DNA of 64,000 nt. It comes from Anaerohalosphaeraceae bacterium. Lineage in GTDB: Bacteria > Planctomycetota > Phycisphaerae > Sedimentisphaerales > Anaerohalosphaeraceae. The position numbers were made by a program. The stretch covers positions 64,001-128,000 of the forward strand of contig JBNRMN010000034.1 in NCBI GenBank assembly GCA_050309605.1. The letters run 5' to 3'. Positions 21,001 to 24,000 of the stretch are shown piece by piece (the stretch's first letter is position 1; every line of letters begins with the position of its first letter).

Positions 21001-24000
21001 ACGCCGGTCTTTACGCGCATCGGCGATGATCGTGTGCTGATTGACCCGCGCACGCTGCTGGACGGCGATGAGGCGATTTTGATTGAGACGCTGGTTGAAA
21101 TTCTGCATTAAAACAAACCATGAAGATCGTTTCAAGACATTATGCTCCGAACTAAGAACTACGAACTAAAAACTCCGAATTATGACCCAAATCAACATCA
21201 CTCTCGGCACCGCCGGGCATATTGACCACGGCAAGACGGCGTTGATCCGCTTGCTGACCGGCTGTGAGACCGACCGGCTCAAGGTCGAAAAACAGCGTGG
21301 CATGAGCATTGAGCTGGGCTTTGCCCCGTGTCTGCTGGGGGATAGGGAGGTGGGGATCGTCGATGTCCCCGGACACGAACATTTCATCAAGACGATGGTC
21401 GCCGGCGCCGCGGGCATTGACGGAGTGCTGTTTGTCGTGGCCGCCGATGACGGGATTATGCCTCAGACGCGCGAGCATCTGGAGATTTTGACCCTGCTGG
21501 GCGTGCGGCACGGCCTGACCGTCCTGACCAAGATCGATCGTGTTTCGGAGGAGCGCGTCGAGGCAGCGATCGATGAACTCCGAACGTTTTTGTGCGGCAC
21601 GTTTTTGCATGATGCCCCGATTTGCCCGATGTCCAGCATCACCGGGCAGGGATTCGACGGATTCTATACGGCGTTGAAAGATGTGGTCGCTTCCATATGC
21701 CCCAAAAGCATTGACGGGGTGTTTCGTCTGCCGGTGGAACGGGCGTTTTCGGTCAAGGGCTTCGGCACAGTGCTCAGCGGCATCCCCGCCGCCGGTTCGG
21801 CACAGATCGGCCAGGAAGTCGTCCTGCTGCCGAGCGGACAAACCGGACGCATCAAGGCGATACAGGTTTACGGCAAGCCGTCCGAATACGTGCGAAGCGG
21901 CCAGTGTGCGGCGCTGAATATCCCGCAGATGGATTATCGTACTATCCGACGGGGCGACGTGTTGACGGTAGAGGGGTATTTTTCTCCGACGCAGTGGTTT
22001 TTGTGTGCCGCCGCGGTGCTGCCCGGTCAGTCGCTGCCTGTTAAAAACGGTGCTGAGATGAGGTTCCACACCGGCACGGCGGATGTTGCGGCCAATGTTT
22101 ATCGTGTTGAGCGAGACGAGTACTTTGCCGACGGCGACTTCCTGCTTCAGATTCGTGCGCATACGCCGCTTGTGGCCGCCCCCGGCGACCGGTTTATCCT
22201 GCGGTCGCTGTCGCCGATGCGTACCGTCGGCGGGGGGCGCATCCTTCAGGCGATGTCATCGCGTCTTCGGTATGCTCACGGGCGGGGGCCGGCCTATGCC
22301 AAAGCACTGGCCGAGGCGCAGCGGAATGAAACGGCATTTGTCGCTTTTGCGGTGGAATCGGCGGCGTCCGGCGTCGCACGGCTTGATGATCTCACGTCGT
22401 TTACCAAGCAGAAGCCTGAGCGGGTGCGGCGGCTGCTGGCGGATTTGCTGCAGACACAAACCGTTGTCGCTTTGTCCGGCGATGTGTATATCCACGCCCG
22501 AAAACTGTCGGTGATGTGCCGGCACATCACCGAAACGCTTGAGCAGTTTCACGCCGACCATCCCGAACGGCCGGGCATGGATGCGGAAGCTTTAGCCGAG
22601 CGGCTTGAACTGGGCAAAGGCGTTTTTGATGCCCTGCTGGAAGTTGCCCTGAAACAAGGGACGGTCGTGCGGCGTCTGGATCGGCTGGCACTGCCGTCGC
22701 ACACCGAAACCTGCAATCCGGCTCTGGCAAAACGGCTCCGGCAAATCGAAACAGCGTTCCTGAAAAACCTGTTTGCTCCTCCCGGCCTCAATGAACTGAC
22801 GGCCGAGTCCGGCCTGACCCCATCACAAATCCGGGAGGCCATTACGATTTTGATCGAACAGAAAAAACTATTTTATGTGGACCGAACGATGGTATTCCAC
22901 GCCGAGGCCGTAAAGCAGGCCAAACGCCGTATTGCCGAGCATATTCAGGGCCAAGGGCGGGGCCGTCTGGAAAGCGTCGCATTCAAATACTTGATTGATA
23001 CGACCCGAAAATACGCCATTCCGCTGCTGGATTATATGGACAAAATCGGCTTTACCCGTCGGGTCGGCAATACACGTTACTTGAAATAAGTCTGCTTGAA
23101 TCCATCGGCAAAAAAGGATATATTGGTCAAGAGAGGTGTTTATGCGATACGGTGCAATTTCTGCCAAACTGTTGGCGCTGGGGGTGGGCAGTTTCGTCGT
23201 GCTGGTGGTTCTTCAGCCGGGGTGAGGCAATCCCTTTGGAGTGCTTGGAGCACTCCTGATGATGGTTAGTATGCCGCTGGCGCTGGTCTTCGGCGTTATC
23301 GGCGTGTTTCTGGACAAACCCCGCTGGCCGGCGATCATTGCCGCGCTGATTGCATTGCTCTTGCTGTTGCCGGTCGTGATGAACCTGGCCGGCTGGTGCT
23401 AAGGTCAACGGCTTTCAAAGGTGCGCCCGCCGGAGCCGACCGATTCAATGACCCACCAGCCGTCCGATTGGACGGCCTCAGTCGGTTTGCCGTTCATCAG
23501 CACGGCCGGGCGGTCGCTGTGCTGAACGGGCAGATATACCTCTGCGGTCATATTGGCCGGCAGGGTGATGTCCAGTTCAAAGGTCCCCGCCGTATCGCGA
23601 AAGGCCGCCTCGATAGTCCCCCGAATCGTCGGAAGCCTGAGCTGTGCCCATTCCAGCCCGCCGGTTTGCGGACGGATGCGAATGCGACCGTAACCGGCCT
23701 CGATCGGTTCAATGCCGAACAGTCGGCGGGGGATGATATTGAGCGGGGCACTGGCCCATGGGTGGGCATAGCTCATATTGGGCTTGCCGGACGGATCCCA
23801 TGACTCAGTGGTGATAGTCGCGCCGAGGTGATGGATCATATGATGCCAGGAATGTTTCTCGGTCGAGGTCATCAGTGCCAGCGCCGCATCACCGCGGTCG
23901 GCGTTATACAGCGCATCGAGCAGGTATTGCGCCCCATACACGCTGCAAACCATTCCTTTCTCGATCAGAAACTGAGCCACTAACTTTTTGCGTTCCGGCG

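Follow-up and report, generated by a model that had tools for sequence, protein, structure and literature searches.

A probable new family of small membrane selenoproteins encoded beside selA and selB in Sedimentisphaerales (Planctomycetota)

MerT has three helices and works together with MerP. A selenocysteine (Sec)-containing MerT-like mercuric transport protein (PF02411) appears in the selenoprotein table of a recent review (PMC13188914); in this small polytopic inner-membrane protein, a Sec or Cys located close to the membrane surface is thought to accept a soft metal from a periplasmic partner. A second membrane selenoprotein of anaerobes is SaoP of the SAO system (NF040733), a 268-aa ABC permease for which Cys-containing members are known, and the SAO system is linked to double-cubane (NF040772) proteins (Haft and Gwadz preprint, 10.1101/2022.07.06.499078). 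The Sec of SaoP has non-Cys residues on either side and has been proposed to work at the outer face as part of an oligomer. Finally, the Tso and other neighbourhoods (Haft and Tolstoy 2025, as relayed in part by PMC13188914) are clusters of lineage-specific selenoprotein genes, some of them beside methyltransferases.

The locus considered here lies in a 64,000-nt stretch of the genome of an Anaerohalosphaeraceae bacterium (the window). Its central gene, hereafter X, and the two genes that precede it are as follows.

19711..21111, + strand: selA (TIGR00474, E 2e-165, 550.9 bits)
21182..23089, + strand: selB (TIGR00475, E 3e-96, 323.5 bits, cut-off 242)
23131..23136, + strand: ribosome-binding-site-like GAGAGG, 5 nt upstream of the ATG of X
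23142..23402, + strand: gene X, encoding a predicted 86-aa three-helix membrane selenoprotein (ORF, homologues, hydropathy and charge, coding signal up- and downstream of the TGA)
23223..23225, + strand: in-frame UGA, codon 28, predicted to be read as selenocysteine (TGA in 53/53 aligned copies)
23238..23256, + strand: putative SECIS hairpin GGAGUGCU-UGG-AGCACUCC (MFE fold, covariation, bacterial SECIS constraints)

The ORF runs from an ATG at 23142 to a TAA stop at 23400-23402 and comprises 86 codons with a single in-frame TGA, reproducing the coordinates of an earlier note on this DNA, which had described an 86-aa ORF with an in-frame UGA at codon 28. Purine-rich stretches resembling GGAG or AAGGA are visible by eye ahead of the start codon in most homologues among the 50 listed. 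X starts 52 nt past the end of selB on the same strand, so that its placement directly downstream of selA and selB is borne out, and SelA, SelB, SelD and tRNA-Sec, which the genome had been said to possess, were all detected. With its in-frame UGA, an in-ORF hairpin whose loop follows 20 nt on and selA, selB, selC and selD in the genome, X resembles ordinary bacterial selenoprotein genes, from which it differs in belonging to a new protein family without Cys orthologues. As a putative integral membrane selenoprotein of anaerobes it also resembles SaoP, whereas its 86 aa, its three helices, the lack of a transporter domain and its location in the selAB operon set it apart. The MerT-like protein shares with X the character of a small polytopic inner-membrane protein, but X has no match to PF02411 (E<=0.01), carries a single Sec rather than C/SxxU and lacks a conserved cytoplasmic Cys pair.

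The read-through sequence of X was used as a query against 251 genomes of the order and gave 56 matches at E<=3e-4, spread over 47 genomes. Of these matches, 54 contain a single TGA as their sole stop and the other two contain none; the single-TGA pattern reported previously for the order therefore stands. A further 11 weaker rows were mostly long stop-free open frames and are probably chance matches. Among the carriers are a single-contig genome (G052) and a genome record without the metagenome-assembled label (L079), which may therefore come from an isolate. In all 53 extracted TGA-containing copies the TGA occupies an identical ungapped column, again as had been claimed. The pattern also holds in the phylum sample, where 9 of 401 genomes were matched, eight of the matches having one TGA and the ninth beginning past the Sec column with a TGA just upstream in the DNA. 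Outside the order, U is kept at the Sec position while the adjacent residues vary. The motif PG-U-GNP, previously called invariant, is not: G-U-GS, G-U-SS, G-U-GD and D-U-G were found, as were G-U-P and A-U-G outside the order.

The X family is almost confined to selB-positive genomes. Full selB is present in 40 of the 47 X-carrying genomes, and a cut selB lies beside X in three more, compared with 54 of the 251 genomes overall, a number that also shows how patchy the Sec trait is in this order. Among the 54 selB-positive genomes, 40 were matched by X and 14 had no match with this query. In 29 of 50 loci, X is preceded by a co-oriented selB that ends no more than 700 nt away, and 17 of the 50 keep the UGA and the hairpin with no selB in the 0.6-3 kb of upstream DNA examined. 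The neighbours of X at these selB-free loci were considered as a functional clue and rejected, being unrelated genes (photolyase, epimerase, MatE). At 99.7% completeness, the genome of the window lacks any molybdopterin oxidoreductase, and it is to this family that the selenoprotein most common in bacteria belongs; a search with PF07355 (GrdB) found no match in any control genome and so carries no weight.

According to section 5 of PMC13188914, bacterial SECIS elements have a loop of 3-9 nt with a G in its first two positions, an upper stem of 4-16 bp, a distance of 16-37 nt from the UGA to the loop and an MFE of at most -7.5 kcal/mol. The hairpin of X lies within all four constraints published there, with an 8-bp stem starting 12 nt past the UGA, an apical UGG loop (G second) 20 nt past it, and an MFE of -17.6 kcal/mol for the 54 nt following the UGA or -12.9 kcal/mol for nt +7 to +48. 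The structure can be drawn either with 8 bp and the loop UGG or with 7 bp and the loop UUGGA. Among 51 distinct sequences, pairing is seen in 91.9% of cells, a share that falls to 40-51% in controls with a shifted 3' partner; double changes occur in seven of the eight pairs, and the covariation score was reached by none of 500 shuffles. The 8-bp stem and the compensatory changes of the earlier description are thus upheld, while the stem start given there (14 nt) has to be corrected to 12 nt and the loop (UUGG) to UGG or UUGGA. A search of positions 23000-23500 against Rfam at E<=10 returned no SECIS family, merely chance miRNA and snoRNA rows.

In pairwise comparisons of X homologues, identity at the three codon positions amounts to 0.56/0.66/0.33 before the TGA and to 0.45/0.70/0.33 in codons 41-56, and pN/pS is 0.41 upstream and 0.24 downstream of the TGA (codons 29-78; 34 pairs). 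Judged by these sequence comparisons, the stretches before and after the TGA evolve under coding constraint in a shared reading frame. The residues G-N-P-x-x-x-L-G are conserved immediately 3' of the TGA, Asp58 is invariant and G54 and A64 are near-invariant in the aligned family, and no conserved start codon was found between the TGA and codon 40 in the aligned homologues. UGA otherwise acts as a stop: 27 of 55 X-family ORFs terminate in TGA. Nor is the internal TGA an assembly error, since independent contigs of four other runs, one with a depth of 50, list no difference at 23223-23225. Within X, the single difference in the well-covered contig (depth 50) is a synonymous G>A at 23174; one low-depth contig (4.8) has a T insertion after 23360, which we count against X. 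No RNA run is listed as containing the locus, and one run with a transcriptomic label probably consists of DNA.

Hydropathy and the positive-inside rule suggest that X has three transmembrane helices and a cytoplasmic N-terminus: in 83 of 85 sequences, Lys and Arg average 1.72 per sequence in the N-terminus, 0.42 in the Sec loop, 2.47 in loop 2 and 0.39 in the C-terminus. The tight turn P-G-U-G-x-P, which joins helix 1 to helix 2, would then lie at the outer (periplasmic) membrane surface, and the invariant Asp of the D-(K/R)-x-(K/R) loop on the cytoplasmic side. A lipobox follows the consensus L-(A/S)-(G/A)-C after a signal peptide; Sec as a lipobox residue was considered for X and rejected, since (Q/R/K)-P-G precedes U and two more hydrophobic helices follow. 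The absence of a Pfam or NCBIfam family, noted before, was confirmed: no Pfam family was matched at E<=0.01, PF02411 (MerT) included, and the sole NCBIfam row was a chance-level MFS efflux model (18 bits against a cut-off of 850), with no match to SaoP (NF040733), the SO_0444 efflux transporter (NF033936), TsoX (NF045809) or VPGUxxT (NF041383). A profile search of the PDB gave no matches at E<=1.

Three non-Sec paralogues of X that we inspected have TTA, TTA and TGG at the Sec codon, each one base from TGA. The canonical hairpin is absent from their predicted fold, and six of its eight positions pair in its register. As these Leu and Trp paralogues stay open, the selenol is apparently not required in every copy. 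Two database 'W' homologues, by contrast, show a W where the family has its terminal TGA stop as well and are for that reason artefacts of translating TGA as W; the proposal that W at the Sec column stems from code-4 translation is accordingly right for at least two W proteins, and the earlier caveat about non-Cys residues at this column is partly resolved. In the ESM Atlas, the natural Trp paralogue gave only weak leads (score 0.91, recognition below the guide value) to unnamed small membrane proteins.

No Cys was found at the Sec position in the 251 genomes of the order, and among the best 150 representatives listed, 3 of the 53 proteins covering the column have Cys there, all distant and two of them fused to DUF922. 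A Cys-containing orthologue of X was thus not found in the sequences searched, which we count against the Sec reading; almost all selenoproteins are said, in PMC12013277, to have Cys homologues. The lack of Cys orthologues also means that X would be missed by pipelines based on Sec/Cys homology, a limit stated in the same source. Most of the 150 listed database matches are 38-60-aa C-terminal pieces, and three 47-aa calls were returned for X itself, in agreement with the claim that public protein sets hold truncated calls only. A C-terminal Cys, given in the earlier note for 11 of 12 loci, is not a general feature and occurs within the last four residues of 38 of the 85 distinct members; 37 of the 85 have neither a C-terminal Cys nor one up to six residues before U, and six of these 37 are Cys-free. 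A Sec-Cys redox pair with the C-terminal Cys was rejected on these counts.

Taken together, X very probably represents a genuine family of translated membrane proteins that contain Sec and are tied to selAB, and the proposal of an undescribed small membrane selenoprotein family beside selA-selB is supported by all comparative tests run. SelB with Sec-tRNA(Sec) would bind the 8-bp hairpin starting 12 nt past UGA-28, and the ribosome would insert selenocysteine there, yielding the 86-aa product rather than a 27-aa peptide. Were UGA-28 an ordinary stop, the locus would hold two small genes, one for a peptide of 27 aa and one for a membrane protein of 47-58 aa, with the hairpin as an mRNA stability or attenuation element, as the 47-aa tail in public sets and the predominance of 38-60-aa C-terminal pieces among the 150 listed matches might suggest. 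Such an arrangement is very improbable, given that the G-N-P and L-G right after the TGA are among the best conserved residues with no conserved start up to codon 40, that all 53 copies stay in frame through the TGA, that the family shows a near-restriction to selB-positive genomes and that the paralogues put sense codons in place of the TGA, leaving one continuous ORF. Read-through without Sec, whether through a suppressor tRNA or through near-cognate insertion of Trp or Cys, could draw on the W at the Sec column of some database homologues and is nonetheless scarcely credible: two of the W proteins are translation-table artefacts with W at the terminal TGA too, TGA is the terminal stop of 27 of 55 family ORFs, the hairpin conforms to the SECIS model and the family tracks selB.

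UGA-28 could also serve mainly as a sensor, X being a regulatory ORF with which the selAB transcript ends and whose read-through reports the supply of Sec-tRNA or selenium through the 27-aa versus the 86-aa product or an altered mRNA fate, with selenol chemistry secondary. In E. coli, a SECIS-like element in the selAB leader confers SelB-dependent control, which we count in favour of such a role, together with the placement of X immediately after selB at 29 of the 50 loci, the failure to find Cys orthologues or a conserved partner Cys, and the Leu and Trp paralogues that stay open. We nevertheless consider this function improbable, because purifying selection extends far past the UGA (pN/pS 0.24 over codons 29-78, with Asp58 invariant and G54 and A64 near-invariant), because 17 of 50 loci keep the UGA and hairpin among unrelated neighbours, with no selB in the upstream DNA examined, and because X lies downstream of the genes to be regulated.

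A hairpin-filtered genome scan gave a second candidate family, Y, and no classical selenoprotein; a codon-usage scan for more selenoprotein genes produced 197 candidates, presumably mostly antisense frames, and this set was dropped. The gene for Y and its neighbours in the window are the following.

14110-14892, - strand: activase ATPase (TIGR00241, 251 bits)
14889-16280, - strand: HGD-D paralogue, within the island block 14110..17200
16268-17200, - strand: HGD-D paralogue, within the same block
17124..18269, - strand: double-cubane-cluster reductase (NF040772, 406.5 bits, above the cut-off of 350)
18309..19124, - strand: SAM-dependent methyltransferase, an island member with identical position in L162 and L163
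19204..19464, - strand: gene Y, second candidate selenoprotein (YG-U-GSTC-RYSWRVP), divergent from selA, with TGA at 19342-19344 and a hairpin that begins 13 nt past the TGA

The order of the island is activase, two HGD-D genes, double-cubane reductase, methyltransferase, Y, selA, selB and, at its end, X. The whole island has an identical order in three genomes of two families, and the HGD-D genes also adjoin the double-cubane gene in L162. Among the 54 selB-positive genomes, X is found in 40, Y in 53 and the double-cubane reductase in 42, often within a few kb of one another. The Y selenoproteins are mostly signal- or membrane-anchored. Like the Tso and related neighbourhoods, as described in PMC13188914, the island groups several lineage-specific selenoprotein genes; unlike them, it includes selA and selB themselves, and neither X nor Y matched the NCBIfam models of those neighbourhoods (TsoA/B/C/X/Y, MduS, MbdU and others) at E<=0.1.

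Synteny and distribution hint that X may be the membrane component of a selenocysteine-dependent module, to which Y selenoproteins, a methyltransferase and an ATP-activated double-cubane reductase would also belong and in which a soft substrate or electrons would be bound or handed on by an exposed selenol; we advance this role tentatively. The selenol of X at the membrane surface would take up the soft substrate (metal, metalloid or selenium species) or electrons, and X would probably act as an oligomer, because helix 2 has G-x-x-x-G and tandem paralogues are common. A broader reading, for which we hold similarly guarded expectations, is that X, Y, the methyltransferase, the ATP-activated double-cubane reductase, selA and selB might form one mobile Sec island encoding an undescribed envelope-to-cytoplasm pathway that is the reason for Sec retention. 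Periplasmic and membrane selenols would capture and pass on a soft substrate (metalloid, organometallic or selenium species), which would then be reduced and methylated inside the cell.

The X family is absent from the table of prokaryotic selenoproteins in the 2026 review (PMC13188914) and was not found in the literature searched, which included look-ups by motif and by term in PMC13188914, PMC13326102 and PMC12013277; Haft and Tolstoy 2025 or the BSepDB/deep-Sep supplements might list it. X is invisible to current pipelines because gene callers cut at the UGA, Cys homologues are lacking and no profile matches. Only a handful of integral membrane selenoproteins have been proposed for bacteria; X joins them and is, as far as our literature searches show, the first membrane selenoprotein encoded in the selAB operon itself. 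Two questions thereby become testable in culturable relatives, namely the link between double-cubane proteins and selenium and the retention of the Sec machinery in some lineages. The X island may explain why these anaerobic bacteria retain the machinery for Sec insertion; if the pathway outlined above is real, the island, and not formate dehydrogenase, would account for the Sec machinery kept in these Planctomycetota, and the published, unexplained link between double-cubane proteins and selenium would gain a physical basis.

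The gene X, a candidate small membrane selenoprotein gene with selenocysteine (Sec, U) at codon 28, follows selA and selB on the same strand.

Features of X and its immediate surroundings (window positions)
23142-23402, forward strand: X ORF (ATG, 26 sense codons, TGA, 58 sense codons, TAA)
23223-23225, forward strand: in-frame TGA of X, codon 28
23238-23256, forward strand: hairpin GGAGUGCU-UGG-AGCACUCC, starting 12 nt after the UGA
Ending 52 nt before the X ORF start, forward strand: SelB gene, 635 aa (TIGR00475, 323.5 bits; cut-off 242)
Directly preceding the SelB gene, forward strand: SelA gene (TIGR00474, 550.9 bits)

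The ATG is preceded, 5 nt upstream, by GAGAGG, and the read-through product of 86 aa contains three hydrophobic stretches by hydropathy. It matched no Pfam family at E<=0.01, and the sole NCBIfam row was at chance level. The stop codon of a convergent alpha-L-rhamnosidase gene (23405-26008, reverse strand) lies 2 nt from that of X, which ends at 23402; no terminator-like site was found between the two stops (23400-23405).

The reading frame is translated-like on both sides of the TGA. Among 42 distinct X sequences with a start exactly 27 codons before the TGA, mean pairwise nucleotide identity per codon position was 0.56/0.66/0.33 in codons 2-27 and 0.45/0.70/0.33 in codons 41-56, a coding pattern in the frame that spans the TGA. 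Codons 29-40 gave 0.63/0.68/0.54, the surplus third-position conservation coinciding with the location of the hairpin. The pN/pS ratio was 0.41 upstream and 0.24 downstream of the TGA (34 pairs, 75%-99% identity), the best-conserved residues flank it (P26, G27 and P31, each in at least 90% of sequences), and the family alignment contains no conserved start codon downstream of it. These organisms also use UGA as an ordinary stop; 27 of the 55 family ORFs terminate in TGA.

The TGA is conserved throughout the family. A six-frame search of 251 genomes of the order Sedimentisphaerales with the read-through protein yielded 56 matches with E<=3e-4, spread over 47 genomes; 54 contain a single TGA and are otherwise free of stops, and two lack a TGA, so that the observation of the earlier note that nearly all matches in the order contain a single TGA holds in this larger scan. 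The same is true of its placement in one column: in 55 family ORFs cut from 50 loci, the TGA occupies a single ungapped alignment column in all 53 TGA-bearing ORFs. Across a phylum-wide sample, a 46-row profile matched 9 of 401 genomes, with one TGA in eight of the matches, while the ninth starts past the Sec column and has a TGA just upstream. The PG-U-GNP motif, previously described as invariant, is not: these distant members retain U and the hairpin but differ in the neighbours of U (FG-U-PP, GG-U-PL, PA-U-GS). Scanning one genome per prokaryote species with a DNA pattern for PG-U-GNP plus the loop produced 75 matches in 71 loci. Family members (profile E<1e-15) account for 65 of these matches and 61 of the loci, and truncated members for two more matches. 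By their record titles, the true members belong to Planctomycetota; Sedimentisphaerales, Anaerohalosphaeraceae and Phycisphaerae predominate, some are labelled Pirellulales, and two bins bear other labels. The other eight matches, from other phyla, were dismissed as chance (no ORF, 2-6 of 8 stem pairs). Contigs from four other public runs (four studies) span the X region, and no difference at the TGA was listed among them; the one at depth 50 differs synonymously at 23174, and one at depth 4.8 has a T inserted after 23360, which may be an error.

The hairpin register of X refolds in nearly all homologues. Over 51 distinct sequences, 91.9% of cells are paired, a value that falls to 39.7%-51.2% on shifting the 3' partner by 1-3 columns. 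Two-sided changes affect seven of the eight pairs (92 cells versus 21.6 expected from shuffles), and the covariation score was reached by none of 500 shuffles. The 8-bp SECIS-like hairpin with compensatory changes had been noticed before and is borne out by this set, although it begins 12 nt, rather than 14 nt, past the UGA. Section 5 of PMC13188914 gives a bacterial SECIS model in which the loop has 3-9 nt and the stem 4-16 bp, the first two loop positions include a G, the UGA-to-loop distance is 16-37 nt and the MFE is <= -7.5 kcal/mol; X has a UGG loop, an 8-bp stem, a distance of 20 nt and an MFE of -17.6 kcal/mol (54 nt after the UGA) or -12.9 kcal/mol (nt +7 to +48). An Rfam search over the X region matched no family. 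Judged by these sequence features, the predicted recoding signal belongs with the ordinary bacterial SECIS elements.

Conservation and charge outline the protein. M1 and D58 are invariant, and G4, P26, G27, U28, P31, G54 and A64 occur in at least 90% of sequences; helix 2 contains G-x-x-x-G (G50 and G54 in the window protein), a common helix-packing motif. Lys plus Arg average 1.72 per sequence at the N-terminus, 2.47 in the helix 2-3 loop, 0.42 in the Sec loop and 0.39 in the C-terminal tail (83 of 85 sequences). By the positive-inside rule, under which positively charged segments are cytoplasmic, the N-terminus and the D-(K/R)-x-(K/R) loop would be cytoplasmic and the Sec turn would face outward. 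X would then be a three-helix inner-membrane protein with Sec at the outer surface of that membrane. A Cys at or next to the C-terminus, earlier thought near-general (11 of 12), is found among the last four residues in 38 of 85 members; in 13 members a Cys stands no more than six residues ahead of U, and of the 37 with neither, six lack any Cys. A partner Cys is not conserved in the family. Several loci carry tandem Sec paralogues.

The distribution of X follows that of the Sec machinery. The window's genome, 99.7% complete, has selA, selB, selC and selD, with selD adjoining the tRNA-Sec gene (74.4 bits) on another contig. Across the order, selB scores above the cut-off in 54 of 251 genomes, and 40 of the 47 X-bearing genomes are among them; in three of the remaining seven, selB is cut by a contig end right beside X, and the other four are 78%-94% complete by the scan's figures. 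In 29 of 50 loci, selB has its 3' end no more than 700 nt upstream of X on the same strand; selB is farther off in one, the flank is too short in three, and 17 have none within the available flank. In the species-wide set, which overlaps the order set and is not independent of it, selB adjoins X in 42 of 61 loci. In loci where X does not adjoin selB, it has unrelated genes as neighbours.

A word-indexed protein search with X returned solely three 47-aa truncations. A profile search over 1.84 billion representatives gave 171 matches at E<=0.001; the 150 listed are mostly C-terminal pieces of 38-60 aa, and 53 of those listed cover the Sec column, with W (10), V (9), G (7), L, R and F (4 each), K and C (3 each), S (2) and seven other residues once each. 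Two W proteins from public metagenome calls (P0007, P0008) run past the family end, with a second W at the TGA stop of their relatives; W at both sites marks them as translations of Sec forms with a TGA=Trp table, and the organisms behind them use TGA as a stop. A locus whose DNA reads TGA at this position is 92% identical to one W protein and 99% identical to one S protein. The three non-Sec copies with inspected DNA are tandem paralogues of a Sec copy.

Non-Sec tandem paralogues of X, in loci cut from relatives' genomes (ORFs intact)
L083, 2117-2374
L026, 1056-1340, reverse strand
L024, 1501-1785

Their Sec codon is TTA (Leu) in two and TGG (Trp) in one, codons that each differ from TGA at a single base; the hairpin has decayed, the canonical hairpin no longer being the predicted fold. 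The earlier suggestion that W at the Sec column may come from code-4 translation is borne out for at least the two W proteins P0007 and P0008. No Cys paralogue was seen among the tandem copies, and no Cys orthologue among the 251 order genomes or the 53 column-covering proteins listed; the three with Cys are remote matches (E about 1e-5 to 1e-6), and two of these are fused to DUF922. This absence is unusual, since PMC12013277 reports Cys homologues for almost all selenoproteins, with a method that, by its own account, may miss families without them.

Comparison shows that UGA-28 is conserved as a sense position and is followed by a covarying SECIS-type hairpin, in genomes with Sec machinery; the case for Sec insertion, which would be SelB-dependent, is strong. 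Three other readings account less well than Sec does for conservation at the protein level, a distribution restricted to selB-bearing genomes and paralogues with a sense codon. That X is a sensor ORF is improbable; two separate genes meeting around UGA-28 are very improbable, and read-through with a residue other than Sec is hardly to be expected. On the sequence evidence, we regard X as a real selenoprotein family of Planctomycetota.

A scan of the same genome for UGA plus hairpin sites disclosed a second motif, (Y/F)G-U-G-x-x-C-x-(Y/L)-SWR(V/E)P, in three ORFs, one of them (Y) divergent from selA and the others at C2:24735-27692 and C2:30297-31472.

The island (window positions)
14110-23402: activase, two HGD-D, double-cubane, methyltransferase and Y genes; divergently, selA, selB and X
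19204-19464, reverse strand: Y ORF, TGA at 19342-19344
Beyond Y, reverse strand: methyltransferase gene
Beyond Y, reverse strand: double-cubane-cluster reductase gene (NF040772, 406.5 bits)
Beyond Y, reverse strand: two HGD-D paralogues
Beyond Y, reverse strand: acyl-CoA-dehydratase-type activase gene (TIGR00241, 251 bits)

Y matched nothing in Pfam or NCBIfam and is a second undescribed candidate selenoprotein family. It occurs in 63 of 251 order genomes in up to 11 copies per genome, with at least one TGA in every match among those listed, and 19 distinct copies share the hairpin GGUACUCG-UGG-CGAGUGCC, 13 nt after the UGA. Most Y proteins inspected have an N-terminal signal or membrane anchor, which the window's short copy does not. 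Of the 54 selB-positive order genomes, 53 have Y, 40 have X and each has at least one of the two. Directly after Y, and before the methyltransferase gene, lies a terminator-like hairpin of 12 pairs plus a T run (19147-19175, reverse strand), on account of which Y may be transcribed alone. Two genomes of another family, with proteins 50%-63% identical, show the arrangement HGD-D, double-cubane, methyltransferase, Y(n), selA, selB, X as well (L162, G204:C115:19500-33500; L163, G113:C32:9500-20500); from the double-cubane gene to selB, the order is identical in three genomes of two families, the outer genes running past the ends of L162 and L163. NF040772 is present in 49 of 251 order genomes, 42 of them selB-positive and 48 with Y; in 26 of the 42 genomes having both it and selB, no more than 15 kb separate the two. 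Haft and Gwadz (10.1101/2022.07.06.499078) reported that the assemblies behind 955 of 970 strong NF040772 proteins contain SelD, and did not settle why.

X falls outside every family testable in Pfam, NCBIfam release 20 and PDB, in agreement with the earlier note's undescribed selenoprotein family of Planctomycetota, and its motif is absent from the family table of the 2026 review PMC13188914. As far as our searches show, the family is undescribed, although Haft and Tolstoy (2025) and supplementary family lists, outside this comparison, may bear on its novelty. Nearest in architecture, among the few proposed membrane selenoproteins, are the SaoP permease, the SO_0444 efflux transporter and Sec-MerT, with which X shares no detectable sequence. 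From its neighbourhood only, and at modest odds, X might be a functional partner of Y, the methyltransferase and the double-cubane system; at similarly modest odds, its exposed selenol might bind or relay a soft substrate or electrons, and X would in that role probably be oligomeric. The genome yielded no PF00384 match (molybdopterin oxidoreductase/formate dehydrogenase), and hence no formate-dehydrogenase-type selenoprotein, and none of its five AhpC-TSA genes is interrupted by an in-frame stop. Lineage-specific families may make up most of its selenoproteome, and the conserved selenocysteine island around X merits study in its own right.
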